From a virus: DNA of 64,000 nucleotides. Below are positions 12,501-63,893 of this stretch, piece by piece; the stretch's first letter is position 1, and each line of letters opens with the position of its first letter. The stretch spans positions 33,217 through 97,216 of the IMG/VR virus record IMGVR_UViG_3300045988_126669. One strand, given 5' to 3'. The notes under the pieces are model-generated. The model was not told the origin of the DNA. It worked only from the letters and a program-made list of their open reading frames with translations, and did no database searches. Position numbers and translations under genes: made by a program.

Positions 12501-14884
12501 GGTAATACTCCACTAAAAGAATTTATAGTATTAATATATTCTTGATTAGCATCAGTGGCTCTATTAGTAGCCTATACATTATTAAGAATTTCAATAACCA
12601 TAGAAGAATATGAATCTTGTAATGAATTAATAGTATTTTCAATCTGTTCTTCAGTCATCTAAGTGCCTTCTAAAGTACTTCGTAACTATGAAAATGCTGA
12701 ATTGGCTTCATTTTCTGTAATAGTAATTAAACTATTTAACTAATTTCTAAATTCTTCAGTTGTATTATAAGTCCCATTAAGAATATTATCTAAACTATTA
12801 AAAGACATCCCTAACTAAGAAGTTTTATCACGAACCTATTGGAGTTTCTCTTTTAATTCATCTAAATTTTCGATATCTCTTGTAGCACTTTGGAAATCAT
12901 CTAAAACACTAGATAAAACAAAATTCTGTCTAGTAGAATTTACCTAAGATCTATAATCCTAAACATTCCCTTGTTTCATTCTAACTTGCGTTTCAAGCTA
13001 TCTTTCTAATTGACGAGTTATTTTTTGCTATTGTTCTAAATCTTGAGCACTCTTAATTGCTCGTTCTCCAAGTTTTTCATTAATATCTATAATAAATTTA
13101 GCCTAAGCCTATTCTTCTTCAGTCAACTGACTCCCCTAAGCAATTAATTCTCTTTGTTTCTAAATTAAAACATCTTGTAAATTAGCCTACTAAGTATAAA
13201 TATCACTACGAGTAGAATAATCAGGTCCCTAATCAACATTATCTGCCATAATAGATCTCAATTTATTATTAGCTTCTTGACGCATTTTTACAATTTCATT
13301 TATTCCATTTTTAGAAGAAATTTTAATATTATACATCATCCGTTGAATAGATTTTGTAATATCATTCCCGAATACTTTAAATCCAATAGTTCCAATAATA
13401 GATAGAACTCCAGGCAGTCCTCCTAATGCTTTAATTAGCTAGCTAATAACATTTAATAATTTTGCAAAAATATTAGTTAATTGAATAAAAGCCTTATCAT
13501 CCAATAGCTAATCATAAATAGTTTCCAAAGAAGCAGTAACTCTATTTTTAGCAGCTTCCCAAGATTCTGCGTAAACGTCAGCTTGCTCCTGAAGAGATCC
13601 ATCAGCATCCTAAGCTTTAGTAAGATTTTCTTTATAATAATCAAAATGATCCATCAAAGCAATTAATTGAGTATATTGACGAACACCCGCAACCTATTGT
13701 GCTAAAGCTACTTGCTAATCTTTATCAATACTCTGCCATTTATTACCCATTTCTTCGATAATATTATCCATATCTTTTAATTCACCATTAGAATCTTTAA
13801 TATTAATTCCAACTTTTTCAAGAGCCTATGAGTATTGATTTAATGTAGTACCATCTTCTAAAGTTTCACCAAGTTTTAAACCTTGAATACGAGCAAAGAT
13901 CGTTTTTAAAGCAGTACCTACAACATCTTCACTTTGACGAGTAGTAGCAGTAATAGTGGCTAAAGCTGCTGCTGCATTATCAAAACTTAAACCAATTGTA
14001 CTAGCAACCGCTGCAAATTTTTCAAGGCCACCAGCAATCTCATCAGAACTAGAAGCGGTATCCGCACCTAAACGCACCATAGCATCAGCATAATGCTCTA
14101 ATGACTAGCTTCCATCATAAAAATTATTCCAGACAGCAGTCATTTGATCTGAAACAATTTCAGCACTTTCACGAGCCACATTTGCCATTTTTATAGTGAT
14201 GTCAGTACGTTCTTTTACCTATTCATCATTTAAACCCTACTGATAATAAATTAAGGCTGCGTCAGTATATTTAGTAGTTGTAGTGCTTAACTCTTTAGCA
14301 GCTTTATTTGCCTAAATTGCAAATTTTGCCATCTAATCTGCATTTTGTCCAGTAACGATACGAATATTATTTAAAGATTCATTTAAATCCTAAGCATAAT
14401 AATAGGCAGACTATATTGCTCCCATAAAGCCATGTAAAATACTTGAAGATATTTGCCAACGAGCAGTATTAGCTAAAGTAGTTCCAAATTCTTTTAATAA
14501 GGCATTACTTCTTTTTAAGGGCAACTCTGCTGTAGAAATAGATTTTGCTAAATTAGCGAAAGCCTATTCGCCTTCTCTACCTAAAATTTGTAGCTAATCT
14601 CCATACTCGCTAATAGTTCTTCCACTTTTTTTTAATGATTGATTAAATTTTCCTAAATCAATAGTCCCCGCCTCTGTTCGGCAAGTGACTAACATCCCTT
14701 GTAATTCACTAACATAAGGCAAGGCTTTTTGAATTTCTTGCGATAAACTTAAATTACCATAGCTGTTAACATTTTTTGTTAAATTATTAAGCTATTCTTG
14801 TAAATCTTTCAACTATTGTTGAGCCTATTTAGCATCAGCAGTAAATTGTAAATTAACCTAATAACTATTTAATTGTTTAGCCAT
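6578..14884 (-). CDS. tail tape measure protein, ~2768 aa (TP901-family N-terminus ...IYYQQGLNDEQV...), TAG-recoded
   Basis: ATG 14882-14884 with an AAAGGAG RBS. Seven track ORFs are all in frame 1 (ends 7204, 8431, 9454, 11278, 12151, 12448, 14080). I walked the frame from 6941 down to the TAA at 6578 and met only TAG. It has coiled-coil and TM-like segments typical of tape-measure proteins. Confidence 0.75.
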
Positions 14885-15008
14885 AGGAATCTCCTTTCTC
14901 TCCAATTTTTACTTTGCAAAATAAAAATAAAACGGGGATAAGAGCAATTACACTCTTATCCCCATCACTCTATTATTTTTCAAAAAATAATATTATTAAC
15001 TAATTTAA

Positions 15009-15542: not shown

Positions 15543-15605
15543 AATTAGCCTCCTTTTACTCTTTATTATATTATACAAAAAATTTTTTATTTAGTCAAAA
15601 TTCAA

Positions 15606-31571: not shown

Positions 31572-31600
31572 ATTATACTCGAAAAAATTTTTTTTGTCAA
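31572..31600 (-). promoter_or_regulatory. sigma70-like promoter (TTGACA-17-TATAAT) for the leftward late operon
   Basis: Reverse complement of tgtcaa (31595-31600) and attata (31572-31577), ~25 nt upstream of a GGAGG RBS and ATG. Confidence 0.4.
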
Positions 31601-36410: not shown

Positions 36411-36570
36411 TTACCTATTGACAATTTCAAAACTTTGTGGTATAATCGGCCGGCGCGCGAACGGACCTGGCGCGCCGAGTTTTTGTCAATAGGCAGATTC
36501 AACAAATTTTTGGGGCAAATTTTTGTGCAAAGTGTCAATAGACAGAATCCCGAATCGGTGCTATACTATA
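36411..36570 (+). promoter_or_regulatory. module copy 1: IR-flanked promoter (TTGACA 36418 / TATAAT 36441), GC hairpin 36447-36479 + U-run, TTTTTGTGCAAAG box, then promoter P2 (TAGACA 36539 / TATACT 36562)
   Basis: The 13-bp inverted repeat tgcctattgacaa / ttgtcaataggca brackets the first promoter and the hairpin. Confidence 0.6.
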
Positions 36571-38636: not shown

Positions 38637-38820
38637 TTGTTAAAATTTTAACAATGGTTGTTCGGCCGGGCGCGCACGGCCCACGCGCCCGGAATTTCCA
38701 TTATATCACAGGGCCAGCAATTTGTCAAGCAAAAAGTTGCAAAAATTTGCACAAATTATTTTTCCCAATTTTGTGCGATCCGTCAATAGACAAATCTCTA
38801 AGGGTGTGTTATATTATAAT
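38637..38820 (+). promoter_or_regulatory. module copy 2: palindromic TTGTTAAAATTTTAACAA, GC hairpin 38666-38692 + AATTTCCATTATATCAC, AAATTTGCACAAATT box, then P2 (TAGACA 38787)
   Basis: Conserved blocks shared with the copies at 42.9, 45.2 and 47.7 kb. Confidence 0.55.
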
Positions 38821-42885: not shown

Positions 42886-43071
42886 GCCTATTGACAAAAA
42901 TCCAATAGTGAGATAAAATGGCCGGCCGTTTGCGCCTGCCACGGCCGGAATTTCCATTATACCACCATCTCAGCAATTTGTCAATAGGAAATTTAGCCAA
43001 AAGTCCAACTAATTATTTTCCCGAATTTGGGTATTTTACCAATAGACAAGAATGTAATAATCTGCTATACT
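42886..43071 (+). promoter_or_regulatory. module copy 4: IR-flanked promoter (TTGACA 42891 / TAAAAT 42914), GC hairpin 42920-42948 + AATTTCCATTATACC, then P2 (TAGACA 43043 / TATACT 43066)
   Basis: cctattgacaa...ttgtcaatagg inverted repeat as in copy 1. Confidence 0.55.
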
Positions 43072-50010: not shown

Positions 50011-50280
50011 TCGGTATACCCATATGCAAAATTTCTCATACTTCTAGCACCTCTCCATATGGCCCAAAAAAATCCCGAAAATTGACTTTTTATAAAAAAT
50101 ATGTTATAATGATAAAAAAAGACTTTTTTAAGCCCGCGTAGGATCATATGCCTTTATGATTAATTAAAAACTGCTTCGCCCTTACATTGTTTCACGCGTA
50201 TGTTTTCATTTAAAAAAATCTTGACATTTTTAAAAAAAAAGTATATAATATATATAGAAAATAAGAAAAGAGGTATTCAT

Positions 50281-51430: not shown

Positions 51431-51579
51431 TTCATTATTCCTTTTCAAATTTTGATTTCATTTTCCTAAACGTTCCCCGGAATAGACACCCCTACTTTAC
51501 GCAGAAATAACCTACCCCGAGATTTCATTTCAAAATTATATTTCTTTCTTTTATTATATATATTATAATATATTATTTA

Positions 51580-51828
51580 TTAAATGTCAATTGACTCTTG
51601 TAAGAATGGATTCTCTTCTATTGATTCAGGTCTATCCTCATATTTTATTTTAATTGGTTTTGTATTACTTGGAATAACAAAATAAAGAATATCATCTCTC
51701 ATATATAATTCAGGTTTTATCATATTTGTTTTATCCATCTTATCAAACTATTCTTGCGTTCCTCTTACAAATCTTATTATTGAAGAATTGCCTTTCCCGC
51801 CTCTTATATCTGTATAACTATAACTCAT
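51580..51828 (-). CDS. hypothetical protein (82 aa, 1 TAG)
   Basis: ATG 51826-28, TAA 51580. Confidence 0.35.
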
Positions 51829-51831
51829 ATT

Positions 51832-52536
51832 TTACTCCTTATTTTTCTTGTAATCATTTCTAAATACATATTCTTTTTTAAGCCCTTCTATATTGCACTA
51901 TGGCTTATATAAAGTAATTAAAGCTAATTCCATTGCTTCTAAATCTCTTACTGTAATATTAAAATCAGTCTTTAAATTTTCAACTATAATTAAAGGTTTT
52001 AACATAATAGTTCTATTACTTTCTTTAGCTGACTATAATATTTTATATAATTCAGTTTTATCTTCAAAATTTCTACTATTCATAAACTATTTATGCTATC
52101 CAAATCTTGTTCCAAAATTTTTATTTGTTTTACCAATATAAATTAAAATATTATCTATATAAATACCATAAATACCGTGCTAATAATAAAGAGGATCTTT
52201 AGTCTAACGTCTCTTTTTAACTGAAGATTCTTCCACCTAACCTGGAATTTTCTTTTTAATTACTTTATATTTTCGAGGAACTTCTCTTTTAATTATCTGC
52301 TATTCTTCTTTTTGTTGTGATAATTTAGTTAAAGATAAATATTCTCTTATAGTTTTTTCTTTTGTTAAAATATAAGAATCTTTTATATCATATTTACTTC
52401 TATCTTTTTCTATATCTTCTATAATATCATTATAATTTTCATTATTAGACATTCTTTCTAATAAAATATATGTGTCATTCCGTATACTATGACCTATTAT
52501 TTTTTCCCATTCTGCTTTTAACATTTGTTTATTCAT
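51832..52536 (-). CDS. GIY-YIG homing endonuclease-like protein (234 aa, ~9 in-frame TAG)
   Basis: ...YYQHGIYGIYIDNILIYIGKTNKNFGTRFGQHK... matches the GIY-x10-YIG + Arg motifs, followed by ...LEAMELALITLYKPQCN (Glu/Asn). Continuous only with TAG=sense. Confidence 0.6.
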
Positions 52537-52559
52537 CACCTTTTGTTCATTTATAAGTC

Positions 52560-52765
52560 TTGCAAAAACTGTAGATTTTTTGCAAACTTGTTTGCAAAAA
52601 TTCCTTAAATTGCAAATTTGCAAACTTGTTTGCAAAAATTTTGCATTTTTGTATATTATATATTGCTTTGTGCAAAATGCAAAAATCATTGTAAATTGCA
52701 CAAATTTGTAATTGCAAATTGTTGCAATATTGCAAGTTTTGCAACAAAATTTTTGCAAAATTGCA
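52560..52765. repeat. dense array (>15 copies) of palindromic TTTGCAAA / TTGCAA(A/T) motifs
   Basis: gcaaaaactgtagattttttgcaaacttgtttgcaaaaattccttaaattgcaaatttgcaaacttgtttgcaaaaattttgca...attgcacaaatttgtaattgcaaattgttgcaatattgcaagttttgcaacaaaatttttgcaaaattgcaa. Intergenic between the HTH gene and the GIY-YIG gene. Confidence 0.7.
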
Positions 52766-52766
52766 A

Positions 52767-53168
52767 TTAAAATACAAATTCTATATCTTTTTCCTTACGC
52801 TTTTTCCATCCTTCACTATGATCTACAGAACTTTTACTAATACCCAACTCTTCAGATATCTAAGTAGAATTCATACCATTTTTAGCTAAATTATAAATTT
52901 CATTATCATCAACTACTCTTTTACGACCATAATTATTTCCATTATTTATTTTATTTATATAGTCCTATTTACTTTTTTCAATAGCACCTTTAACAAAATT
53001 CAAACCCATAGCAACAACAGGGTCATCTTGAAATTGAGGTTCATTACCGGTTCCATATTGAACCATATCATATATAATTTTCATTTGTTGTTCATTAGGT
53101 AAGCCTTTAATGTTTTCTAACCACTCGCCATAAAATACAAATCTATGTAAATCCTTTGTATTATCCAC
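52767..53168 (-). CDS. HTH DNA-binding protein (133 aa; HTH NSTQISEELGISKSSV), 2 TAG
   Basis: GTG after a GGGAGGG RBS. I walked the frame through TAGs at 52965 and 52860 to TAA 52767. Confidence 0.5.
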
Positions 53169-53361
53169 GCGGTTTCCCCTCCCCCTAAACCTCCTCAAAG
53201 TCAGCTAAAAAGCTCTCATCGACGGAGAATATCCAACAATTATATTGCGGGAACTTCGGGTTCGGCATCATCTACAAAGGGAAATGTCCTCTTTCCACTA
53301 ATTTTTCCATTACTTTAAGAGAATATACTATCATATTCTTCTTTGTATTTTGATTTTCCAT
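53161..53361 (-). CDS. hypothetical 66-aa protein (2 TAG)
   Basis: RBS AAGGAAGG + ATG. Exactly 67 codons to TAA. Confidence 0.35.
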
Positions 53362-53378
53362 TTGTTCAATACCTTCCT

Positions 53379-53513
53379 TTATTTGCTATGATTTGCTATA
53401 TATTCTTTAAGCGCTTGTCTTACAATATAAGACAAACTCAAATCTAATTCTTTCCCCATCTCAGTGAGAATATCTTTATCACTCTATGAAATTCTAATTG
53501 TCATAGTAGTCAT
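53379..53513 (-). CDS. ribbon-helix-helix (CopG/Arc-like) regulator, 44 aa
   Basis: MTTMTIRISQSDKDILTEMGKELDLSLSYIVRQALKEYIANHSK is a beta-strand followed by two helices. One TAG. Confidence 0.5.
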
Positions 53514-53599: not shown

Positions 53600-53678
53600 A
53601 TTCTTTATTGATTTTTATTAAATTTTAATATATAATATAAATATAAAATAAAGAAAAACTATTAAAGGTGATAAAAAA
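53600..53678 (+). promoter_or_regulatory. AT-rich promoter region (TTGATT..TATATAATATAAATATAAAATAAAG) for the rightward third block
   Basis: Related to the class-III modules at 56.4, 59.6, 60.7 and 62.7 kb. Confidence 0.35.
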
Positions 53679-53876
53679 ATGCTTGCTAAACTTATTGATA
53701 ATCAAGGTCAAACTCATATCCTTAATACGACTCATATTCATTCAATTTCCGTAAAGAATTCTGGATCGGATAAACTTGTGATGATTTTTTGGGATAATGA
53801 AGCAAAAACCGCGTATTATGTAAGACCCACTGAGTATAGCACTTTTATCAATACTATTTTTAAGGAGGACAAGTAA
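53679..53876 (+). CDS. hypothetical protein (65 aa)
   Basis: RBS AAAGGTGA. Confidence 0.5.
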   Translation: MLAKLIDNQGQTHILNTTHIHSISVKNSGSDKLVMIFWDNEAKTAYYVRPTEYSTFINTIFKEDK

Positions 53877-53877
53877 T

Positions 53878-54216
53878 ATGTCTGTTGATTTTGGTTCTAA
53901 GCTCGTATGCGGTTATAAAGTCCCCAAGAACCTTCTCGAAAACTATGATAATATGGCTGAGGCTATCGAACAGCTTACCGAGGAAGGTTATTGGCATCGC
54001 GCAAGCGATTATGATAACGACGAGAATCCTATCTTCGGCTATCTTCTCGGTGAGTCTTCCGCAGGTGAAGCCGTCCGCATTGACAATATCTTCATCGCTC
54101 CACAGGAATATTATCGCCTTAATGACACAATGAAGGAAGCTTATGCAAAGTTTCTCAAAATCCCCATCGAAAGTCTTGATGATCCTGAGATTTTTCTAAT
54201 CTCTACAATTTCTTAA
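53878..54216 (+). CDS. hypothetical protein (112 aa)
   Basis: RBS AAGGAGGA. Operon-style spacing. Confidence 0.55.
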   Translation: MSVDFGSKLVCGYKVPKNLLENYDNMAEAIEQLTEEGYWHRASDYDNDENPIFGYLLGESSAGEAVRIDNIFIAPQEYYRLNDTMKEAYAKFLKIPIESLDDPEIFLISTIS

Positions 54217-54232
54217 AGAAAGGAAAATAAAT

Positions 54233-54487
54233 ATGAAACAATGCCCCGTTTATTATGAAGCACGTTATTGGGACGACTCTGATAAAATGGATAGATTTAC
54301 GTGCGGTTTTATCTTCGCGGAAACCCTCACCGAAGCTGGTCGTTGGGCAGAAGAGTATTTCGACGATCTTATTACTGTCGCATTTACCCCTCTTGATGAT
54401 GGCCCCTTGCGCGTCAACCGCGATCTTGCCAATAAGATTCTAAAATTTGACAGCGAAGATGAACCCTATACTGCTAAAACACTATGA
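54233..54487 (+). CDS. hypothetical protein (84 aa)
   Basis: RBS AAAGGAAA. Confidence 0.5.
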   Translation: MKQCPVYYEARYWDDSDKMDRFTCGFIFAETLTEAGRWAEEYFDDLITVAFTPLDDGPLRVNRDLANKILKFDSEDEPYTAKTL

Positions 54488-54933
54488 TGACTTTTTATTG
54501 TAATAACTGCGGTTATTACCGGCCAACAACCGGATTATGTCAAATCACAGGCAACACTATGGATCCCAATCACGCAACTTGTGAAAACTTTCTTTGCGGT
54601 GAATATTACACTTGTAAAGCATGTCATACTCCAATTTTCCATAAGCAAATGATCATCGACGATCAAGGCAACACTTATTGCGATAAATGTTGGGCAAAGC
54701 TTAGCACGTGCCAAAATTGTGAACAAAATGTGAACTGCGCGTTTGATGCTTCTCCCGACACACCGAAAATGGTCCAAAAGCGAGAAATCGTTGGAAATAT
54801 GCAAACCGTCACGAATGTCCGTAATCCCGACATTATTCGAAAGACTTGCCAAAATGGTTGTTCTTGTTTCACTGAGGAAAATGGCTGTATGAGAGATTTC
54901 AATTACTGCGATAACCTCAAACCTATTCTTTAA
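54484..54933 (+). CDS. Cys-rich multi-zinc-ribbon protein (149 aa)
   Basis: Many CxxC pairs: CNNCGYY...CQITGN, CENFLCG, CKAC, CDKCW, CQNCEQN. Confidence 0.55.
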   Translation: MMTFYCNNCGYYRPTTGLCQITGNTMDPNHATCENFLCGEYYTCKACHTPIFHKQMIIDDQGNTYCDKCWAKLSTCQNCEQNVNCAFDASPDTPKMVQKREIVGNMQTVTNVRNPDIIRKTCQNGCSCFTEENGCMRDFNYCDNLKPIL

Positions 54934-54947
54934 AGGAGTTTTTAAAT

Positions 54948-55547
54948 ATGTTTATCTTCTTCTTGAAAACGCTGGTGGGCGGATTTGTTCTACCGACCTT
55001 AATTATTTTTCTGATTTTCGCCATTCATTCTGCATATTGTAGCTATGGCTATTATAGCACTCTTTCCGATCCTAAGGCCAAGCACTTCCGCAATTGGTCT
55101 CACCGCGACCGCGTTGACATTCCCCGTCAAATTATTCCTGCCTTTTGGATCGGCGTTTGTCTTTATCTTGCCGTAAGTATGTTCGGTGGAGTTATGATGT
55201 CTTCCATTACCGAAGATTATGCTAACTATGATTATACGATTGCGGAAGCCAAAGAGTTAACGAGTATGGATAATGATGGCTGTATCTATACTTACCGCGC
55301 ATTCGAGGGTGAAAGTGTTTACTATACTTATCTTACACTTAGCGCTGATGGCATTACAAGCACTGAAAATTATCCTGTGAATAGCACAGTAGTTATTTAC
55401 TCTAATCAGGTTCCGCACATTGAGAAGCGTCTCCCGCGTTATGGCGATTGGAGAGAGTGGTTCTTTGTCTGCACTAAATCAACGCGAGCTTATCTTTATA
55501 TTCCAGAAGGAACAGATGTAGCGAAAGACTATATTGTGGAGAAGTGA
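54948..55547 (+). CDS. membrane protein (199 aa)
   Basis: RBS AAGGAG. N-terminal TM helices. Confidence 0.55.
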   Translation: MFIFFLKTLVGGFVLPTLIIFLIFAIHSAYCSYGYYSTLSDPKAKHFRNWSHRDRVDIPRQIIPAFWIGVCLYLAVSMFGGVMMSSITEDYANYDYTIAEAKELTSMDNDGCIYTYRAFEGESVYYTYLTLSADGITSTENYPVNSTVVIYSNQVPHIEKRLPRYGDWREWFFVCTKSTRAYLYIPEGTDVAKDYIVEK

Positions 55548-55548
55548 A

Positions 55549-55818
55549 ATGAACAAAGGTGATTTAATTTATTTAAAAATGTCTAATGGCGACCGCGCTT
55601 TTATTAATGTAAATGAGGTCGTTATAGTTCTTGTTTCTCATACTACCAAAAGTAATTCAGATGATAATAATATCTCCACTGAAACTTTTGAAACAAAACT
55701 TGAGTTTTGTATGAGCAATAAGTCTCATTATATGTATACCTTTGATGACAATGATCCTGATGGTATGAGAGTTATAAGACAACTCAAAAATTTTGTTTCT
55801 GAGGAGGCATTTAGATGA
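55549..55818 (+). CDS. hypothetical protein (89 aa)
   Basis: Starts 2 nt after the upstream TGA. Confidence 0.45.
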   Translation: MNKGDLIYLKMSNGDRAFINVNEVVIVLVSHTTKSNSDDNNISTETFETKLEFCMSNKSHYMYTFDDNDPDGMRVIRQLKNFVSEEAFR

Positions 55819-56060
55819 TTGTAATTTTACACAACTTCCGCGGTTTTAAATATCTTATCAATACTAATAATATCAATAGCGTTAGCTTTTCCGCGGTCGA
55901 TTCTAAACAATATGCAGATGAGATTGCGGAAGCAGGCGGGAGTCCCCTCACGCGCATTTACATTGATTGGTATGGCGGTTCTTCCACAAGCATTCTTGCA
56001 ATTTCCGAAGTGGCTGATGAATTTCTCAATCTTTTTGAAAACGCGGTTGAAATCTTTTAA
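55815..56060 (+). CDS. hypothetical protein (81 aa)
   Basis: ATGA overlap. RBS GAGGAGG. Confidence 0.5.
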   Translation: MIVILHNFRGFKYLINTNNINSVSFSAVDSKQYADEIAEAGGSPLTRIYIDWYGGSSTSILAISEVADEFLNLFENAVEIF

Positions 56061-56118
56061 TTTCTAAATATATTATAACAAAAATTTTGGGTAAAATCAA
56101 TTAATGGAGGAATAATAT

Positions 56119-56334
56119 ATGAGTCGTATCCCTGTTCTATTCATTTATGATGAGTCTCGCGATGAAATTTATTGCGCAACAAATCTTGGTGAATCTGATG
56201 CGCTTGAAATCACTATGTCTGCTATTGAGGAGAACGTCGAAGAGCAATTCCAGTGTCATAAGTTCGATGCTCAGATCTATAATAAAGCGCTTGAACATAT
56301 GATTGTCTATTACGAATATGTTCCCGTTCTCTGA
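56119..56334 (+). CDS. hypothetical protein (71 aa)
   Basis: RBS AATGGAGGAATAATATATG. Terminator 56336-56375. Confidence 0.5.
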   Translation: MSRIPVLFIYDESRDEIYCATNLGESDALEITMSAIEENVEEQFQCHKFDAQIYNKALEHMIVYYEYVPVL

Positions 56335-56375
56335 TCTTTAAAGGATTTGCGTAAACCGCAAATCCTTTTTTGATT

Positions 56376-56435
56376 TTTTATAAAAAATAATATATAATAT
56401 ATATATAAAGTAAAGAAAGAAAGGAAATAAAAATT
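56376..56435 (+). promoter_or_regulatory. class-III AT-rich promoter module TTTTATAAAAAATAATATATAATATATATATAAAGTAAAGAAAGAAAGG
   Basis: Near-identical ~45-nt blocks at 59588, 60678 and 62695, each directly after a terminator and before an RBS+ATG. Confidence 0.45.
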
Positions 56436-56756
56436 ATGACTACTTCTAATTCTAAGATTAAAACTCATTCCATTGGTATTCTTTGTGATACGGCCGGAGA
56501 CCATAATTTCTATTTCCTGAATGCGTCCGAGGCTGATATGCAGGAAATGTTTATGGAATATTGTCGAGATATGGTCGATGATAGTCTTATGGAGCGTCAG
56601 TTCGAAATGATTCAGAAAGATTCCGATTATGATTGGTATCTTTACCACGGTGAGATGACCGGCGAATGGACAAGGAGATTTTCTTCTTATCTCGATATGA
56701 TGAACGAGGTCGCAAATGATGTTTTCATTGATTTCGTTGATGCGGTTGAAATGTAA
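56436..56756 (+). CDS. hypothetical protein (106 aa)
   Basis: Follows the class-III module. Confidence 0.55.
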   Translation: MTTSNSKIKTHSIGILCDTAGDHNFYFLNASEADMQEMFMEYCRDMVDDSLMERQFEMIQKDSDYDWYLYHGEMTGEWTRRFSSYLDMMNEVANDVFIDFVDAVEM

Positions 56757-56767
56757 GGAGAATAACT

Positions 56768-57043
56768 ATGAAAGAAATTACTTGTTATAAAATCGAAGAT
56801 GAAATGACTGGTAAGTCTTGGACATTCGCCAACATCTCTGAGGCAGAAGCGGAAGAACTTTATCTTGCTTTCCTCGAAGGCGCAATCGAAGAAGATATTA
56901 TGGAAACTCAGCGAATTGAATATTACGATCTTCCTCTTCCTGCTCCTGATTGGTGGAAGATCGATCATCGAGAAGAGGTTGATAAACTTCTTCTTATGGA
57001 TGGCGAGTTCTATATGTATAAATTTAATGCTTACGCATTTTAA
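56768..57043 (+). CDS. hypothetical protein (91 aa)
   Basis: RBS AAGGAGAATAACTATG. Confidence 0.5.
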   Translation: MKEITCYKIEDEMTGKSWTFANISEAEAEELYLAFLEGAIEEDIMETQRIEYYDLPLPAPDWWKIDHREEVDKLLLMDGEFYMYKFNAYAF

Positions 57044-57054
57044 GGAGGATATAA

Positions 57055-57953
57055 ATGGGAAAATATAAAGATATAAGTGGTTAGAAATTTGGACGTCTAA
57101 CTGCTTTAGAAATAGATGTAGAAAAAACTAAAACACATAGTTCTACTTATTGGAAATGTTAGTGTGATTGTGGTAATATAAAGAGTATTAGTTTAAATAG
57201 ACTAAGAAATGGTAGCACCAAATCCTGCGGTTGTTATAGGAAAGAAGTAGCAAGTAATAATACCAAAAAAGATTTAGTAGGCCAAAAATTTGGACGTTTA
57301 ACTGTTATTAAAGATTCTGGTAAGAGAAAAGATAACCGTATTATTTGGGAATGCCAATGCGAATGTGGTAATATTGTTTATTATCCAACTAACAATTTAA
57401 CCACTGGAAATGCATAGTCTTGTGGGTGTTTACATAAAGAAATAGTAGCTAATTTAACTAAAAAAGATTTAACTGGTTAGCGTTTTGGTAAATTAACTGT
57501 ATTATTTGAACAATCTGAAAGAAAAAATAATCGTATTATTTGGCATTGTCGATGTGATTGTGGTAATGAATGTGATACTTCAAGTAAATCTTTATTAAGT
57601 GGAAGAAAAATTTCTTGTGGTTGTTTAAAAACATCTCTTGGAGAATACCGCATAAGTAATATTTTATCTGAAAATAATATTGCTTATATTAAGGAATATA
57701 AATATAAAAATTTAGGTAATTTAAGATATGACTTTTATTTACCTGATTATAATAGATTAATTGAATTTGACGGAGAACAACATTTTATGGAAGTTCCTAC
57801 TTGGGGAGAATTAGAAGCTACACAAAAACGAGATAAAATAAAAAATGATTATGCTTTATCTCATAGTATTCCTTTAGTAAGGATCCCTTATTGGGAACGT
57901 GATAACATTACTTTAGACTTATTACTTGGTAATAAATATTTACAAAAGGAGTG
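57055..57953 (+). CDS. homing-endonuclease-like protein (299 aa): three zinc-ribbon repeats (GQ[KR]FG[RK]LT..W.C.C[DE]CGN..SCGC) + a C-terminal PD-(D/E)xK DUF559/Vsr-like domain; 4 in-frame TAGs at 57082, 57160, 57415, 57478
   Basis: RBS TAAGGAGGA + ATG. There is no ORF in the standard code. With TAG=Gln the three repeats align, with CAA Gln at the equivalent position (57283). The C-terminus reads RYDFYLPDYNRLIEFDGEQHF. Confidence 0.6.
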
Positions 57954-57959
57954 ATACTA

Positions 57960-58697
57960 ATGAATTTACCTGGCATTTATCCATTTTTCAATGATTTATG
58001 GAAAGAATATCAATCTTGTTATGTAATTTCAGACACTCATTTTGATGATGAAGAATTAGCTAAAGGGTGTAATCGTCCTTCTACCGATGAATTAATAAAA
58101 AGCATTAATTCTAAAGTTGGGAAAAATGATGTATTAATTCATTTAGGTGATGTAGGAAAAATTGAGTGCGTTAAAAAATTACGAGGCGGATTAAAAATAC
58201 TAATTATGGGTAATCATGATTCTGGTTCATCAAATTATCAACGCCAAATTTGGGAGAAAAAATTTGATAAAGAAATTTATCAAAAAGATGAAGCTCTTAT
58301 AGAAATGAAACGTTTATATCCTGATTGTATTTATACAATTGATGAAGGATATGCTTTTAATCGTCCATTTGAGTATTGGTTAGTTAAAGCTGATAATAAA
58401 TTATTTGATTATGTCTTTCCTGGCGCACTCATCATTGGTGAGAAACTTATGCTTTCTCACGAACCGATTAAGCAGGACTGGGCTCTCGATCTTCACGGCC
58501 ACGACCACAATCATAAAGAGACGGATATCTATCACAAGAATGTTTGTGTAGATGTGTTTGGCCCCGCCCCTTTGAACTTGAATCAGTTTATGAAAAATGG
58601 TCCAACTGCAAAGATCGGGAGCGTCCACAGAAAAACAATCGACAAAGCCACAATCAAAGCCCGAAAGCGAGGAGGTAAAAAGATATGGGAGAAATGA
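57960..58697 (+). CDS. calcineurin-like metallophosphoesterase (phage Ser/Thr phosphatase-like), 245 aa
   Basis: Motifs ISDTHFDD, HLGDVG, GNHD, GHDH. RBS AAAAGGAGTGA. Confidence 0.65.
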   Translation: MNLPGIYPFFNDLWKEYQSCYVISDTHFDDEELAKGCNRPSTDELIKSINSKVGKNDVLIHLGDVGKIECVKKLRGGLKILIMGNHDSGSSNYQRQIWEKKFDKEIYQKDEALIEMKRLYPDCIYTIDEGYAFNRPFEYWLVKADNKLFDYVFPGALIIGEKLMLSHEPIKQDWALDLHGHDHNHKETDIYHKNVCVDVFGPAPLNLNQFMKNGPTAKIGSVHRKTIDKATIKARKRGGKKIWEK

Positions 58698-58855
58698 TTA
58701 TTATGCTATTTATCATATTAGTATTTTTCGGTTTTATGTATATGGATTTACTGGATGATGATACTATGTCTCTCAATGAGAAGTATTATTACTGCGGTAT
58801 GGGCATGTTGCTCTGCCTGTTTGCTGGTTTCATTCAGTCAGTCTTTTATGCTTAA
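58694..58855 (+). CDS. 53-aa two-TM membrane peptide
   Basis: Hydrophobic. Overlaps the upstream stop. Confidence 0.4.
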   Translation: MIIMLFIILVFFGFMYMDLLDDDTMSLNEKYYYCGMGMLLCLFAGFIQSVFYA

Positions 58856-58928
58856 AGCAATAATTCTTTGTTTTTGCGCTCTTGGCATTTTATCCGTTTT
58901 GTTCGATGAATTAGATTAAGGAGGGTGT

Positions 58929-59135
58929 ATGGTAGGATTTATTATAGAAATTATTCTTGGATTAGTTGTAATAAGGATTGCTTTGTATATCTTTAACCTT
59001 ATCGACGGCGCCGGCTCTTCCAAAGATATGTTTCTGATTGATACTTGTATCATTACCGGAACTCTTCTACTTGTAATTTCCGCGCTCCCAATCGTTTTAG
59101 GATTGTATGGAGTAATTCAATATTTTATTCATTAA
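58929..59135 (+). CDS. 68-aa membrane protein
   Basis: RBS AAGGAGGGTGTATG. Confidence 0.5.
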   Translation: MVGFIIEIILGLVVIRIALYIFNLIDGAGSSKDMFLIDTCIITGTLLLVISALPIVLGLYGVIQYFIH

Positions 59136-59148
59136 GGAGAAGATAGTT

Positions 59149-59553
59149 ATGCTTTATGTAGTTTTTATTCTTGCACTTGTGGTCTTTATTGCTCTTATAG
59201 TTTGGAGTTGTAATAAATATTCTGCTCTTGGTTGTATTAGTTCGATTGTTGGCTTCATCGGCACCGTTATCTTTGGAATCGTAATGGTATTTTCTACTAT
59301 TGTGGTTATCAATGAAAATGTATACAGTGATTCTCTCTATGAGAAATATACAACTCGTAAGGCCACTCTTGAATGGCGACTTGAACAGGACTATACTGAT
59401 AATGATAACAACCTTGGCGCAACCGAACTTTATGAAGAAATTCAGGAATATAATGAAGACCTTGCGAGCGCAAAGGCTAATCGCGCGAACCCTTGGTTGA
59501 AGATCTATACCGGAGAATATGTTGATCGACTCGAATTTATTGAGTTGAAGTAA
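59149..59553 (+). CDS. 134-aa protein with an N-terminal TM region
   Basis: RBS AAGGAGAAGATAGTTATG. Terminator 59563-59600. Confidence 0.55.
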   Translation: MLYVVFILALVVFIALIVWSCNKYSALGCISSIVGFIGTVIFGIVMVFSTIVVINENVYSDSLYEKYTTRKATLEWRLEQDYTDNDNNLGATELYEEIQEYNEDLASAKANRANPWLKIYTGEYVDRLEFIELK

Positions 59554-59587
59554 ACAATAAGGACTTATGTTAATTCATAAGTCCTTA

Positions 59588-59650
59588 TTTTATTTTTATA
59601 AAAAAATATAATATAATATATATATAAAGTTAAGAAAGGAAATGAAAATT
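59588..59650 (+). promoter_or_regulatory. class-III AT-rich promoter module TTTTATAAAAAAATATAATATAATATATATATAAAGTTAAGAAAGG
   Basis: Conserved with 56376, 60678 and 62695. Confidence 0.45.
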
Positions 59651-59926
59651 ATGTATGTAGAGCTTTGGGATCTAATTGGTAGAAAATACACTGATCCAGA
59701 AGATGATGAATACGCAATGCTCGTTTCTAAGGATGGCGTTCATATTGCCAACGCGGTTGAGATTCTTTTCTCCAAGGCTAAGGGCGAGGGTCGAATCCGC
59801 GAATATAACATTGAAATCCCCTGCGTTTTCGATACAATCGGCGTAGAGATGGTTTACGTGCTAATTGTCTCTTGGATTAATGCAGATGGCTCTCTTGGAA
59901 CTTATTATACGGAGGTATGTCATTAA
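59651..59926 (+). CDS. hypothetical protein (91 aa)
   Basis: Follows the class-III module. Confidence 0.5.
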   Translation: MYVELWDLIGRKYTDPEDDEYAMLVSKDGVHIANAVEILFSKAKGEGRIREYNIEIPCVFDTIGVEMVYVLIVSWINADGSLGTYYTEVCH

Positions 59927-60174
59927 TGACTGTTTATGCTCTTTGTTATCATTATGATAGTTTTGGCGGTGATGATACCGCGGTGCTTAGCCTTTATTCT
60001 ACTGAGGAAAAGGCTTTTGAAGCAGGACGAAAGAAAGAAAAGGAAGCGCAAGAGCGTTGGGAAAAAAATAAGTCTGTCTCATATTGCAAAAAGCCTTCGT
60101 TTGATGGATTTTTCGTTCACGGCTACGGCGACTACTATGTAAAGATTATGGAAGTTGATAAGGAGACTATCTAA
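59917..60174 (+). CDS. hypothetical protein (85 aa)
   Basis: Overlapping operon start. Confidence 0.5.
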   Translation: MSLMTVYALCYHYDSFGGDDTAVLSLYSTEEKAFEAGRKKEKEAQERWEKNKSVSYCKKPSFDGFFVHGYGDYYVKIMEVDKETI

Positions 60175-60491
60175 TGGTTGTAATGATTTATGCTTATGAA
60201 AGCGTCTATTGCGGACTCCACGGCATCAATACTGGTGGAGTGTATGAGGTTGATAATGTCGCAGAAGCCGATGAGATTGGTAGAGAACTGGCTTATGACG
60301 TAATCGAGGGCTATGGCCATGTCTTTGAGGATTACGACCAAGAAGAGGTAAAGGAAGGCATTGAGTGGGAAGTTTGGCCTGTCCGCGATAATACTGGGCT
60401 TTCCGTCAGTGAGCTTGACTGCGAATTTGCGAACCTCGGTAGAAGTCTCTTTATTGATGAGTATTGTTGTGTAGATATCCACAATACTTAA
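60174..60491 (+). CDS. hypothetical acidic protein (105 aa)
   Basis: ATG overlap. Confidence 0.5.
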   Translation: MVVMIYAYESVYCGLHGINTGGVYEVDNVAEADEIGRELAYDVIEGYGHVFEDYDQEEVKEGIEWEVWPVRDNTGLSVSELDCEFANLGRSLFIDEYCCVDIHNT

Positions 60492-60677
60492 TATAAAACT
60501 CTGGAAGGGCATTCTCTTCCCCAATAGGATAAAGTCTCAGTCCATACCGCTCAGGGGTGCTATTCAATAAGGTTAGATTATAAGTGGGTATGATAATTCT
60601 GCTAACAAACTTGAATAGGCTATATTATATACGCTGAATCCTTGATTGTATGATACCTCCAAAAAAGAGTTTTATTG

Positions 60678-60736
60678 ATTTTTTATAAAAAATATAATAT
60701 AATATTTATAGAAAGTTAAGAAAGGGAATGATAATT
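60678..60736 (+). promoter_or_regulatory. class-III AT-rich promoter module TTTTTTATAAAAAATATAATATAATATTTATAGAAAGTTAAGAAAGGG
   Basis: Conserved block. Confidence 0.45.
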
Positions 60737-60910
60737 ATGAAGTTGGTAGAAAAGCCCTTCACTAAGGAAGATGCGATTAAGGCTCTTGAAGTGATTGATA
60801 CTTATGTTGATATGCTTGATTGGCAAGGTATCATTGATAACGATGAGCTTGATGAACTTACTTTGAATATTTCAATTCTTGAAAGCTTTATTCGAAACGT
60901 AAAAGAATAA
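60737..60910 (+). CDS. hypothetical 57-aa protein
   Basis: Follows the class-III module. Confidence 0.45.
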   Translation: MKLVEKPFTKEDAIKALEVIDTYVDMLDWQGIIDNDELDELTLNISILESFIRNVKE

Positions 60911-60944
60911 TCAATAAACATTAGTGAGAGAGGAAATAATAATT

Positions 60945-61244
60945 ATGGAGAAGTTTATTAACGCAATCGTTTTTGATGATGGCTATCACGATAAGTATGT
61001 CATCTGTGAAGGTGATATTCATAAGTATAGTTTCTGGCTTTTTGTTAATAAGATTGCAATTTGTCATAATGAAACTTATATTATTAAAACTATCCATTAT
61101 GAAGACCTCGAAGAAAGCAATGTCGTAGAAGCCTTTGAAGCAATGGATTCTTCTACTGAGTTGTTTCATACTGAAAAGACTGCGAAGGCTTTCGAAATTC
61201 TTTGGAATTGCGAAGATGCGGTTGAAGGCATTGATGTTTATTGA
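60945..61244 (+). CDS. hypothetical protein (99 aa)
   Basis: RBS GAGAGGAAATAATAATTATG. Confidence 0.5.
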   Translation: MEKFINAIVFDDGYHDKYVICEGDIHKYSFWLFVNKIAICHNETYIIKTIHYEDLEESNVVEAFEAMDSSTELFHTEKTAKAFEILWNCEDAVEGIDVY

Positions 61245-61265
61245 GATTGTAAAGGGGTAATCAAT

Positions 61266-61862
61266 ATGTTTTATTTTGTTCGTTATACTGATAGTTGGGC
61301 TGATGAAATGACCATTGACGGTTTCTCCATTATGGACGAAAAGGAATATGAGCATTATGTTGCAACCGTAAATGCGATTATTGCGGACATTGAGAGCGGT
61401 CTGCCGTTTATCTATCAGGTTGGCTCCAATGAGGAAATTGAATATAATAACGTCGATGACTTCCTTAGCGCATTTGAAACGTCTGAATTTGAAGAGTATC
61501 CCGAAGGCATCGAAATGGTCTTCGGTAAGAAGTTCCCTGAATTTGGGTTTTTCCCTTACGGGCAGATGCTTGATACTCTTTGGGATCGAGCTAATGGCCT
61601 CGAAGTTGGAGATAAAGAATTGATGGAAGAGTATTATCGCATTGATTATTACAATTCTATCACTAAGGAACATGTTGGCGATCCTGTATATATTAAAGTA
61701 AGGGGATACTCTGAGATTGAGGTTGATGCTCAGATCGAATCTTTTGAGGAGCATTTTGCCACGGAATATTATAAACAGTATGGTGTATATGTCTATCCTG
61801 AGACGGGTCGGATTCCCGAAGACCTTTATAATAAGGAGATGAATCTTAATGTCAACGACTAA
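61266..61862 (+). CDS. hypothetical acidic protein (198 aa)
   Basis: RBS AAAGGGGTAATCAATATG. Confidence 0.55.
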   Translation: MFYFVRYTDSWADEMTIDGFSIMDEKEYEHYVATVNAIIADIESGLPFIYQVGSNEEIEYNNVDDFLSAFETSEFEEYPEGIEMVFGKKFPEFGFFPYGQMLDTLWDRANGLEVGDKELMEEYYRIDYYNSITKEHVGDPVYIKVRGYSEIEVDAQIESFEEHFATEYYKQYGVYVYPETGRIPEDLYNKEMNLNVND

Positions 61863-62151
61863 GTATAAGAAGAGCGCGAAAGACCTTGCTTTTGAACGTG
61901 AGAAAGTTAAGCTTCAAGCACGTAATCTTCAACTTTGTAGAGAGCTTGCGGAAGCCCAAAAGGAGCTGGAAACCGCGAAGAAGGAACTTGAAGAGAGTCG
62001 TGCCCGCAATGCGGAACTCGTCTCCTATATTGAGGAAACTACTGGGTGTTGCCCTGAAACTCTCAAAAAAGATATCAAGAACCGCGAAATGATTGCGGGC
62101 TTGCTTCGTTTTTCCTCTCAGGCTATGATGTATGGAGGATTCGAACTGTGA
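61849..62151 (+). CDS. coiled-coil protein (100 aa)
   Basis: Heptad-like LQARNLQLCRELAEAQKELETAKKELEESRARNAEL. Confidence 0.5.
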   Translation: MSTTKYKKSAKDLAFEREKVKLQARNLQLCRELAEAQKELETAKKELEESRARNAELVSYIEETTGCCPETLKKDIKNREMIAGLLRFSSQAMMYGGFEL

Positions 62152-62315
62152 AAATTGGTATTGTAATTGGCGTTGCCTATGGGCTTTTGGCTATCTTTTT
62201 TACCTTTGTTGGAGCGTCAGGAGGCACTATCCCCTGGCCTATTACCGTAGCTTTTGCCGGAATAATTTCTGCTTCTGGTTTTCTTGACGCTAACGATTGT
62301 CGGAGGAATTGATTT
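62148..62315 (+). CDS. 55-aa two-TM membrane peptide (GTG start)
   Basis: Hydrophobic. Overlaps the upstream TGA. Confidence 0.35.
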
Positions 62316-62501
62316 ATGACGAAATTTCTTATCGCTGGGTGTTATACTTTCCTTACAACGTTCCTTTGTTTAGAGGGAATTCATGGGCATCCTATTCCTT
62401 GGATTACTCCGGTGCTTCTGTCTGGGGCTATTGCTTTTATATATTGGTATGACTTTATAACCGAAGAAAAAGACACGGAGGATCCTCCTGATGAAAAGTA
62501 A
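62316..62501 (+). CDS. 61-aa membrane protein
   Basis: RBS GGAGGAATTGATTTATG. Confidence 0.5.
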   Translation: MTKFLIAGCYTFLTTFLCLEGIHGHPIPWITPVLLSGAIAFIYWYDFITEEKDTEDPPDEK

Positions 62502-62664
62502 TATTTTAGGCGGGCTTTGTTTCTCTGTTTTATGCGCTGGCGCTTGCCTTAATATAATGGAAGGTGTCGGCATGGAGATTGCGGTTCCCGCACTAATTAC
62601 TTGGTTGGTTCTGGCGTTCCGTTGTTTCTGGAACGCTTACGATGATAAATATGGTGATGATTAA
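62491..62664 (+). CDS. 57-aa membrane protein
   Basis: Overlap. Hydrophobic. Terminator 62668-62700. Confidence 0.4.
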   Translation: MKSNILGGLCFSVLCAGACLNIMEGVGMEIAVPALITWLVLAFRCFWNAYDDKYGDD

Positions 62665-62694
62665 AGACCTTATGTAAATCATAAGGTCTTTCTT

Positions 62695-62766
62695 TATTTT
62701 TATAAAAAAATATATTATAATATTTATAGAAAGTTAAAGAGAAGATAAAAAAAAGGAGAGACGCTT
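62695..62766 (+). promoter_or_regulatory. class-III AT-rich promoter module TTTTATAAAAAAATATATTATAATATTTATAGAAAGTTAAAGAGAAG
   Basis: Conserved block. Confidence 0.45.
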
Positions 62767-63039
62767 ATGCTTGGCACTGTTAATATTCCTTATTCTAAAA
62801 TTGAAGTAGATATTGAGAACATTTGCGTTGAGTATGGTCATGGCGGTTATGATGTAATGACTTGCGACGAGATCGCGGTTGATAAAATTATTGAATACTT
62901 CCAGAGTAAGCCCGCGTCTCAGCAATGGAATCTTTCTTGCTCTGAATGGCCTAATGAAAAAGGTGGTGCTTGCTTCATCTCTTGGGTTGAAGAAGGTCGT
63001 TTATGCGGTTATGGATTTGATTATTTGATGGAGGATTAA
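62767..63039 (+). CDS. hypothetical protein (90 aa)
   Basis: RBS AAAAGGAGAGACGCTTATG. Confidence 0.55.
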   Translation: MLGTVNIPYSKIEVDIENICVEYGHGGYDVMTCDEIAVDKIIEYFQSKPASQQWNLSCSEWPNEKGGACFISWVEEGRLCGYGFDYLMED

Positions 63040-63040
63040 C

Positions 63041-63292
63041 ATGGAAGTTAAATTTTATCACATTCAAACATACACCTGCTATTGTGGCGAAACAATAGAT
63101 CATTTCTTTAAAGGCACGGAAAAAGAGATGGAACGATATGCGGAATCTTGTGTTGAAGATGACGCTATGGAGTGGTGGGATCAGCAAAGCGAAGAAGACT
63201 TTTATGATGAGTATGACGCTTATCTTGCTGAATGTGGATACAATGTTTGGGAAGTCTCGGAAGAAGAATATGAAAAGTATAAGGAGTTTTAA
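63041..63292 (+). CDS. hypothetical acidic protein with CxxC (83 aa)
   Basis: Tight operon spacing. Confidence 0.5.
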   Translation: MEVKFYHIQTYTCYCGETIDHFFKGTEKEMERYAESCVEDDAMEWWDQQSEEDFYDEYDAYLAECGYNVWEVSEEEYEKYKEF

Positions 63293-63294
63293 TT

Positions 63295-63609
63295 ATGAAA
63301 ACGATTTACGCTATTAGGGACAATGAGACTGAGGAGATTGTTCTTCTTACAGAAACTATTGATGATGCTCAGGAGACAGTTCTTTCTCTCCAAGAGGAAG
63401 CAATGTATGAGCGATTCCTTAGTGATACCGTGCGGTTCACAAGCTCTTATCTTACCATTGAACCGGAAAAGTGGTGGGCGGAGGTCGCCAGCTTGAAAGA
63501 TTGGTATAGCAAGCTTCAAGCAATGCGGTCTCCCTATATCACAACCGAAGGTTTCGCAATTCAGTTCAAGAGCCATGAATATTATATTGAGGAGCAGACA
63601 ATCTTATGA
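63295..63609 (+). CDS. hypothetical protein (104 aa)
   Basis: Tight operon spacing. Confidence 0.5.
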   Translation: MKTIYAIRDNETEEIVLLTETIDDAQETVLSLQEEAMYERFLSDTVRFTSSYLTIEPEKWWAEVASLKDWYSKLQAMRSPYITTEGFAIQFKSHEYYIEEQTIL

Positions 63610-63893
63610 AAAGAGTTCATTTAATATGGGATGAGTTTCGTCCCGTTTTAGCTTGCAGTGATCTTTCAGACGCATATGAAATGCTTCTTTCTTTTTATGA
63701 AGAAAGAACTTATGATGATTTTCTTTGGTCTTGTGTTTATCATGATTTGTCCATTGAGGATTATTTTGATAGTATGAAATGTTCTTTTGAGCTATATAAT
63801 AAGTATAATAACTCTAAGAAATATGAAACACTTGAAGCTTATATTTTAGAGGATGAAAAACATTTTAGCATAGTTAGTATGTGGGAGGTGTAA
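63606..63893 (+). CDS. hypothetical protein (95 aa)
   Basis: ATGA overlap. Confidence 0.5.
   Translation: MKRVHLIWDEFRPVLACSDLSDAYEMLLSFYEERTYDDFLWSCVYHDLSIEDYFDSMKCSFELYNKYNNSKKYETLEAYILEDEKHFSIVSMWEV

Follow-up and report, generated by a model that had tools for sequence, protein, structure and literature searches.

The window analyzed here is a 64,000-nt stretch of phage DNA (positions 33,217 to 97,216 of the IMG/VR record IMGVR_UViG_3300045988_126669), and its right-hand part contains five copies of an AT-rich block, all on the plus strand, which start at positions 53608, 56370, 59589, 60675, and 62693. The blocks are probably sigma-A-type promoter/ribosome-binding site (RBS) cassettes, some of them with a terminator, which serve pre-late genes that are neutral to the genetic code, would be read by the host core RNA polymerase with a primary-type sigma factor, and double as recombination joints. 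The geometry of the motif, its conservation and position, the link between the hexamer TTTATT and terminators, and a hybrid block in a related genome were all seen in the sequence; from these features, we infer that transcription starts at the blocks, which holoenzyme reads them, and when.

In the mechanism that we propose, the blocks would act as compact terminator/promoter/RBS punctuation that splits an array of TAG-free pre-late genes, approximately 16 kb in length, into operons. Each block would present a deliberately sub-consensus -35 element, TTGAtt, or TTtAtt where the hexamer would also be the U-tail of the preceding terminator, followed by a 17-bp spacer composed entirely of A and T (a T-run, then an A-run), a perfect TATAAT, a start region rich in A and T (ATATATAGAAA), and a short leader that ends with a Shine-Dalgarno (SD) sequence. 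Host core RNA polymerase carrying a primary-type sigma factor would read these elements. Recombination between blocks would insert, delete, and swap operons, and it probably keeps the block copies homogenized.

Architecture of the blocks and their -35 hexamer

The first block (53608..53663) comprises TTGATT (53608-53613), a 17-nt spacer made up of A and T throughout, TATAAT (53631-53636), and an AT-rich start region and leader; it is located in a divergent intergenic region with no upstream terminator and heads the operon at 53679-56334. The second block (56370..56425) consists of TTGATT, the 17-nt spacer TTTTATAAAAAATAATA, and TATAAT (56393-56398), followed by ATATATATAAAGTAAAGAAAG and an SD sequence, and heads the operon at 56436-59553. 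In the third block (59589..59641), TTTATT and a 17-nt spacer precede TATAAT (59612-59617) and then ATATATATAAAGTTAAGAAAGG (SD), and the operon at 59642-60491 follows. The fourth (60675..60727) contains TTGATT, the 17-nt spacer TTTTATAAAAAATATAA, TATAAT (60698-60703), and then ATTTATAGAAAGTTAAGAAAGGG, and heads the operon at 60728-62664. The last block (62693..62766) contains TTTATT, a 17-nt spacer, TATAAT (62716-62721), and then ATTTATAGAAAGTTAAAGAGAAG and the SD sequence GGAG; its operon begins at 62767 on the plus strand and extends beyond the window end. As the preliminary description of this DNA had stated, an RBS and an ATG lie downstream on the same strand in all five cases, and each block heads a multi-gene operon. 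Close relatives contain four more blocks to the right of the window end, so that the array in this clade comprises nine blocks in approximately 16 kb; to the right of the ninth block, the array ends and is followed by consensus-type promoters and then by TAG-containing genes.

The repetition of AT-rich blocks, which had been noticed from the letters alone, proved to be non-random. A consensus 25-mer with up to three mismatches had four matches in the window (three blocks and a related promoter at 51590 on the minus strand), as compared with none in 100 shuffled sequences, and a repeat finder assigned the blocks to the families D6, D7, and D13. Pairwise identity over 50 nt was 81-90% among the four core blocks and 73-84% between these and the block at 53608. 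When all 64 kb were scanned with a position weight matrix (PWM) built from the five blocks, the only extra copies were the related promoters at 50221 (+) and 51590 (-). The blocks were also nearly invariant over 12 related genomes, with an identity of 97.5%, as compared with 94.0% for codon positions 1 and 2, 83.3% for codon position 3, and 95.2% for the other intergenic DNA.

TATAAT was perfect in all five window blocks, and the spacing between the upstream hexamer and TATAAT was 17 bp in each of them, although the junction between the T-run and the A-run moves by 1 bp among the blocks. The hexamer is TTGATT in the blocks at 53608, 56370, and 60675 and TTTATT in those at 59589 and 62693, which match TTGACA at four and three of the six positions, respectively. 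The earlier remark that the blocks have no TTGACA -35 element is therefore literally correct but misleading, because TTGATT or TTTATT lies exactly 17 bp upstream of TATAAT. Tandem TATAAT repeats had been proposed as a further mark of the blocks; a tandem TATAATATAAT was found in two of the five only, and a single TATAAT is invariant. Positions -15/-14 read AT, AT, TA, TA, and AT in the five blocks, and the absence of TG in every case ruled out an identity as extended -10 promoters for the window blocks.

To gather further copies, we searched IMG/VR with the spacer/-10 pattern, which matched more than 117 stretches, many of them on contigs of 150-200 kb with capsid proteins 78-100% identical to that of the window. 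Distant relatives were reached via this DNA pattern; locus searches with single ORFan proteins of the window reached the close clade only, and for a 198-aa window protein, all relatives among the matches listed were at least 83% identical. The blocks were re-detected using a PWM in which the hexamer was masked. The frequencies in 190 unique copies were T.99, T.99, G.89, A.91, T.75, and T.84, with TATAAT in approximately 100%. Among 374 unique copies, TTGATT occurred 234 times, TTTATT 33 times, TTGACA 25 times, and TTGACT 15 times, and the G at the third position of the hexamer had the highest information content of the whole block (2.4 bits). TG was present at -15/-14 in 33-45% of the family copies. 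As predicted from these copies, the promoter class is conserved family-wide, old, and of the primary-sigma type, with a -35 element present. Since TTGA is conserved at 17 bp and versions with a full -35 element carry the same spacer, the class is not -35-less.

A strong intrinsic terminator lies directly upstream of three of the five blocks, with hairpins of -19 to -21 kcal/mol and z-scores of about -6; the statement that the blocks follow a terminator thus held for those at 56370, 59589, and 62693 but not for those at 53608 and 60675. The terminator of the first operon (56340..56368, plus strand; -19 kcal/mol, z -6.6) has a U-tail that enters the -35 hexamer of the block at 56370. The terminator of the second operon, which looks bidirectional (59556..59589, plus strand; -20.5 kcal/mol, z -6.1), has the TTTATT of the block at 59589 as its tail, and the tail of the terminator of the fourth operon (62663..62691, plus strand; -21.1 kcal/mol, z -6.6) continues into the TTTATT of the block at 62693. 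Upstream of the block at 60675 is a non-coding stretch (60492-60674; 189 nt) that is approximately 98% conserved in relatives; it contained neither a terminator nor a match to Rfam, and its predicted fold was not significant (z -1.1). At 60605 on the minus strand, a sigma-A-like promoter (TTAGCA-17-TATAAT) is directed back into this stretch.

Throughout the family, 31-49% of the copies bear a hairpin. A terminator-like hairpin adjoins 32 of the 33 TTTATT copies as compared with 72 of the 234 TTGATT copies (Fisher p = 6e-14), and in the TTTATT copies, the hexamer appears to double as the U-tail of the terminator. This explanation was upheld for TTTATT only (97% with a hairpin). As a cause of TTGATT, U-tail duty was rejected, the share of hairpins being 31% for TTGATT and 33% for TTGACA/TTGACT (p = 0.49).

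Recombination between blocks

The copies are approximately 50 bp in length and nearly identical and are therefore substrates for homologous recombination. In the relative L089 (L089:8006-8200; ENA ERZ28657522 scaffold_1046), the whole 2-kb operon at 60728-62664 has been lost, and one hybrid block is found at its place, in which the left flank and the T6 run derive from the block at 60675 and A7-TATATTATAAT...AAAGAGAAG derives from the block at 62693. The crossover falls inside ATAAAAAA(A)TATA, and the resulting spacer is 18 bp. Judged from this junction, the hybrid block is a clean crossover between two blocks. The genes between the blocks are mosaic, with amino acid identities of 60-100% among relatives, and some of them are missing from a subset of the relatives.

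A hybrid block that marks an operon-sized deletion and mosaic identities of the intervening genes would also fit a reading in which the blocks are boundaries of recombination or mobile cassettes, or AT-rich low-complexity DNA, without promoter activity. We consider this highly improbable, because the blocks are oriented strictly in the direction of the downstream genes, lie at a fixed distance from the SD sequence and ATG, keep TATAAT invariant and TTGA conserved at 17 bp, and had no match in the 100 shuffled sequences. Crossover between blocks has a second consequence, namely that conservation outside the hexamers may partly reflect homogenization rather than the binding of a factor.

Regulatory cassettes that double as joints are known as promoter-early stem-loop (PeSL) cassettes in T4-type phages (Arbiol, Comeau & Krisch 2010, PMC2839356; Comeau et al. 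2014, PMC4122927). Like these, the blocks combine a terminator stem-loop, a sigma-70-type early promoter, and an SD sequence in a short repeated motif; they are concentrated in a plastic, ORFan-rich region (here, 27 of 28 genes have no recognizable family); and they bound indels between close relatives, with a chimeric motif at the junction, as in L089. However, the two have no obvious sequence relation. The G/C-rich stems of T4-type PeSLs lie over the -35 and -10 elements (PMC2839356), the stem-loop being between or over these elements, whereas the stem-loop of a block is upstream of the -35 element, with its U-tail overlapping the hexamer. In addition, the -35 element is consensus in PeSLs and sub-consensus (TTGATT) in the blocks, a hairpin is present in about a third to half of the block-family copies, and the block host is probably Gram-positive (Clostridia-like) and the phage TAG-recoded and siphovirus-like.

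The holoenzyme that would read the blocks

At three sites in the window, the spacer or the downstream sequence of the blocks is joined to a consensus -35 element. The promoter at 50221..50275 (+) consists of TTGACA, the 17-nt spacer TTTTTAAAAAAAAAGTA, TATAAT, and then ATATATAGAAAATAAGAAAAGAGG, its downstream sequence being that of the blocks; the promoter at 50082..50110 (+) consists of TTGACT, the 17-nt spacer TTTTATAAAAAATATGT, which is the block spacer, an extended -10 TG, and TATAAT; and the promoter at 51562..51590 (-) consists of TTGACA, the 17-nt spacer TTTAATAAATAATATAT, TATAAT, and then ATATATAATAAAAG. The region at 33-50 kb contains approximately 35 near-perfect, GC-richer TTGACA-17-TGnTATAAT promoters, from which the blocks differ in their spacer, in the absence of TG, and in their downstream sequence. 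These differences, the family-wide conservation, and the pre-late, standard-code genes downstream agree with the initial view that the blocks form a promoter class of their own.

A comparable class was found in phAss-1 (OQ749652.1), a phage of the 'code 15 clade' that is the closest deposited relative by capsid (50% identity). Its genome contains approximately 27 cassettes of the form TTGACA-TAAAAAAATTTTTrTGn-TATAAT-ATATATAGAAA, which precede ORFans, tRNAs (including suppressor tRNAs), and nucleotide and replication genes. The cassettes share with the blocks the downstream core TATAAT-ATATATAGAAA-(A/G)T.A.(A/G)AAAGG, a spacer of A/T homopolymer runs, the 17-bp spacing, and standard pre-late genes downstream, and phAss-1 resembles the window in having a separate GC-richer TTGACA/TGn class alongside. 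They differ from the blocks in their perfect TTGACA and extended -10 TG and in the reversed order of the runs (A7T5, versus T6-AT-A6 in the window blocks). The phAss-1 paper (PMC10607447) makes no mention of this AT-spacer promoter class.

With their sub-consensus -35 element, their lack of TG, and their clean separation from the TGn promoters of consensus type at 33-50 kb, the window copies have features that might be expected of factor-dependent 'middle' promoters. In such a reading, a phage activator or an appropriated sigma factor would recognize the spacer and start region and bypass the weak -35 element, and the blocks would fire only after early proteins. Two systems of this type are well known: the middle promoters of T4, which have a MotA box at -30 and use AsiA-remodelled sigma-70, and the late A3 promoter of phi29, which is p4-dependent and has no -35 element. 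The blocks share with them a good -10 element, a non-consensus -35 region, and the setting of a second temporal class read by the host core polymerase. In paralogues as well as in relatives, conservation extends well past the hexamers, into the near-palindromic spacer TTTTTTATAAAAAA and the ATATATAGAAA region, and many early ORFans could encode a factor. Nevertheless, we regard factor dependence as unlikely. In contrast to both known systems, no feature of the blocks is better conserved than their TTGA core at 17 bp, which would be unexpected if contact with the -35 element were dispensable. The center of the palindrome moves by 1 bp relative to the -10 element among the blocks (T6A6 versus T5A7), and no activator box at a fixed position can be defined. 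Intermediates with a full -35 element carry the same spacer, and recombination between copies can explain why sequence outside the hexamers is conserved. Pfam and PHROGs scans of window proteins, most of which are ORFans and which represent about a third of the genome, recognized no MotA-, AsiA-, or p4-like protein.

The only adjacent gene for a DNA-binding protein encodes a ribbon-helix-helix (RHH) protein of the CopG family (53382-53513, minus strand; 44 aa, Pfam E = 5e-7, one in-frame TAG) and is divergent from the block at 53608; its neighbor encodes a DUF6291 protein with a helix-turn-helix (52770-53198, minus strand). The RHH gene is a weak candidate for the regulator of the class: it is present in just three contigs of approximately 12 close relatives, so that a general role in block regulation is unlikely.

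The strong early promoters of coliphages T5 and T4 offer a further comparison. They have a conserved AT-rich spacer, upstream region, and start region together with a near-consensus -35 element, and they are experimentally active. As host-sigma promoters whose copies are alike well outside the hexamers, with A/T runs in the spacer, they resemble the blocks; they differ in their near-consensus -35 element and in their experimentally established activity.

Evidence on the reading holoenzyme also came from a sister clade (capsid 87% identical), in which a primary-like sigma factor of 286 aa that lacks region 1.1 is encoded at L302:10001-10858 (IMGVR_UViG_3300045988_122061). Phage sigma factors of 286-302 aa, with regions 1.2, 2, 3, and 4, were found in the sister clades and in several other block-bearing phage contigs (loci L302, L223-L225, and L303-L307); the homologues in the latter contigs, which are 130-195 kb in length, showed 44-75% identity. 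A block-type promoter immediately precedes the sigma gene in five of the six lineages examined. In L302, a TTGATT block has the sigma gene as its first downstream gene, and an array of 18 tRNAs with blocks interspersed comes next; the 20 kb that hold the sigma gene and the tRNA array contain 17 blocks. A block that serves as the promoter for a phage sigma gene must fire before that sigma factor exists, which implies that the host holoenzyme can fire it. The recognition helix in region 4.2 (TRERIRQIEAKALRKLRHP) and the residues of regions 2.4/3.0 appear to be essentially those of a primary sigma factor, and no altered -35 preference is predicted.

The presence of a sigma gene behind the blocks of other lineages, and the density of blocks around it in L302, could also mean that a primary-like phage sigma factor replaces host sigma-A on the core enzyme and has the blocks as its preferred promoters, such that host sigma-A would first fire the blocks weakly and positive feedback would follow. 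For the window, this is distinctly unlikely. Its recognition residues would give such a sigma factor no preference of its own for the hexamers of the blocks, and a search for a sigma gene found none in the window, in the approximately 20 kb to its right in relatives, at the syntenic position, or at the other loci of the clade searched, this search having covered all but approximately 100 kb of a genome of approximately 195 kb. A broader possibility is a dedicated second-wave class whose conserved spacer and start region would keep it active, or make it more active, after the phage has altered the host holoenzyme, for example by a phage sigma factor lacking region 1.1, with positive feedback where its gene comes first behind a block, as in sister clades. 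Since the tRNA arrays of these clades would be driven by the class as well, the sigma switch might then be coupled to a switch of the code from TAG to Gln that unlocks the late genes. We consider this quite unlikely.

Several observations weigh against reading by the host holoenzyme as the full explanation of the blocks. The family prefers TTGATT to TTGACA by 234 to 25 copies, and the nearly equal shares of hairpins mean that overlap with a terminator does not explain it; the preference could reflect an adjustment of promoter strength, an uninterrupted T-tract, or common descent with homogenization. In the window, each copy agrees with the consensus at just 9-10 of its 12 positions and has no TG, and the blocks could be weak on host sigma-A alone. 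The conservation of the spacer and start region far exceeds the needs of a generic sigma-A promoter, which leaves room for a class-specific regulator, and concerted evolution by recombination could inflate the apparent constraint.

With these points considered, reading by host core polymerase and a primary-type sigma factor remains the explanation that we prefer. The preliminary description had suggested recognition by a modified polymerase or a phage-encoded factor. The TTGA core at 17 bp, the gradation of the class into TTGACA and TTGACT versions with the same spacer, the homologous cassettes of phAss-1 with TTGACA, TG, and TATAAT, and the sister-clade block that drives a sigma gene all argue against a need for either.

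Genes behind the blocks and the genetic code of the phage

The block-headed operons (53679..63893, plus strand) contain 28 small genes, which end in TAA (19 genes) or TGA (9 genes) and never in TAG; TAG is also absent from their 2835 sense codons. These genes are therefore readable under either genetic code. Twenty-seven of the 28 have no Pfam or PHROG function, the exception being a metallophosphoesterase (57960-58697). Across the family, the first genes behind the blocks include those for ligases of DNA and RNA, enzymes of NAD salvage, a Thg1-like enzyme, proteins with a macro, HD, or RNase H domain, and homing endonucleases; no structural genes were found among them.

One TAG-recoded gene lies within the array (57055-57954, plus strand). 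It encodes 299 aa with four in-frame TAGs, repeated GQ(K/R)FG(R/K)LT...CxC...CGC modules, and an endonuclease-like C-terminus, had no Pfam match, is inserted between two standard-code genes, and is missing from the relatives L087, L089, and L090. The 5' part of the adjoining metallophosphoesterase gene (57960 to approximately 58430) has a low GC content (28%), like the insert. The gene looks like a homing-endonuclease insertion accompanied by a co-conversion tract.

The window phage has a genome of approximately 190-200 kb and has been seen solely in gut metagenomes. Megablast of the 53-64 kb region against deposited phages gave no match, and the capsid identity to large Enterococcus siphoviruses is 39%. 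The predicted host of phAss-1 is Clostridia (PMC10607447), and exact copies of the block pattern were found on phage-sized contigs that are binned mostly into metagenome-assembled genomes (MAGs) of Clostridia; the host of the window phage is probably a gut Clostridia bacterium. The structural genes on the minus strand (window positions 1-31547) are dense in in-frame TAG codons, with 84 in the 2775-aa open reading frame (ORF) at 6578-14905 (-) alone, and TAG is therefore a sense codon in the late genes (code 15). Inspected by eye, this ORF reads like a tape-measure protein rather than a virion RNA polymerase. The recoded stretches of the window are 1-31547 (-), 51835-53513 (-), and 57055-57954 (+), and the regions at 33-50 kb and 53.6-64 kb are TAG-free, with GC contents of 43% and 38% (the latter being the plus-strand block region), respectively. 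Scans for tRNAs and Rfam families across the window gave no match, and no suppressor tRNA was found in it.

Two promoters precede the TAG-recoded late genes. One (31572-31600, minus strand; TTGACA-AAAAAAATTTTTTCGAG-TATAAT-ATAAATATAGA) heads the structural operon, and the other is located at 15570-15598 on the minus strand (TTGACT-AAATAAAAAATTTTTTG-TATAAT). Both 31600(-) and 15598(-) are of the consensus sigma-A type, with spacers of A-runs and T-runs. Consensus promoters in this position suggest that translation, and not a new promoter specificity, may gate late expression.

Two other features of the window were observed. Within the 33-50 kb region, consensus promoters at 36418, 40614, 42891, 45195, 47737, and 49943 on the plus strand and at 38728, 42984, 45290, and 47832 on the minus strand are convergent; the two members of a pair are approximately 90 bp apart, both transcribe into one GC-rich hairpin (for example, GGCCGGCCGTTTGCGCCTGCCACGGCCGG at 42920-42948), and the arrangement is repeated approximately six times. 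It recurs in phAss-1 (130714/130804 and 132917/133008), and the units look like conserved modules of sense and antisense small RNAs. At 52540-52780, dense TTGCAA and TTTGCAAA repeats lie upstream of a recoded GIY-YIG-like gene (52540-51835, minus strand); this repeat field may represent an array of protein-binding sites or a region resembling an origin.

These results provide a first transcription map, as predicted from promoter motifs, for a widespread and uncultured family of gut phages of approximately 190-200 kb that read TAG as glutamine. The map contains at least two conserved promoter classes of the primary-sigma type, and its AT-rich class heads code-neutral pre-late genes and, in sister clades, also tRNA arrays and the phage sigma gene. 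The consensus promoters in front of the recoded structural operons are in line with the proposed gating of late expression in such phages by translation, via recoding, and not by a changed polymerase specificity. For the annotation of these genomes, the consensus TTGATT-N17-TATAAT-ATATATAGAAA is a practical tool. With the hybrid block, the PeSL idea of regulatory cassettes that serve as joints for the shuffling of ORFans extends from T4-type phages, whose hosts are Gram-negative, to an unrelated lineage of Firmicutes phages.

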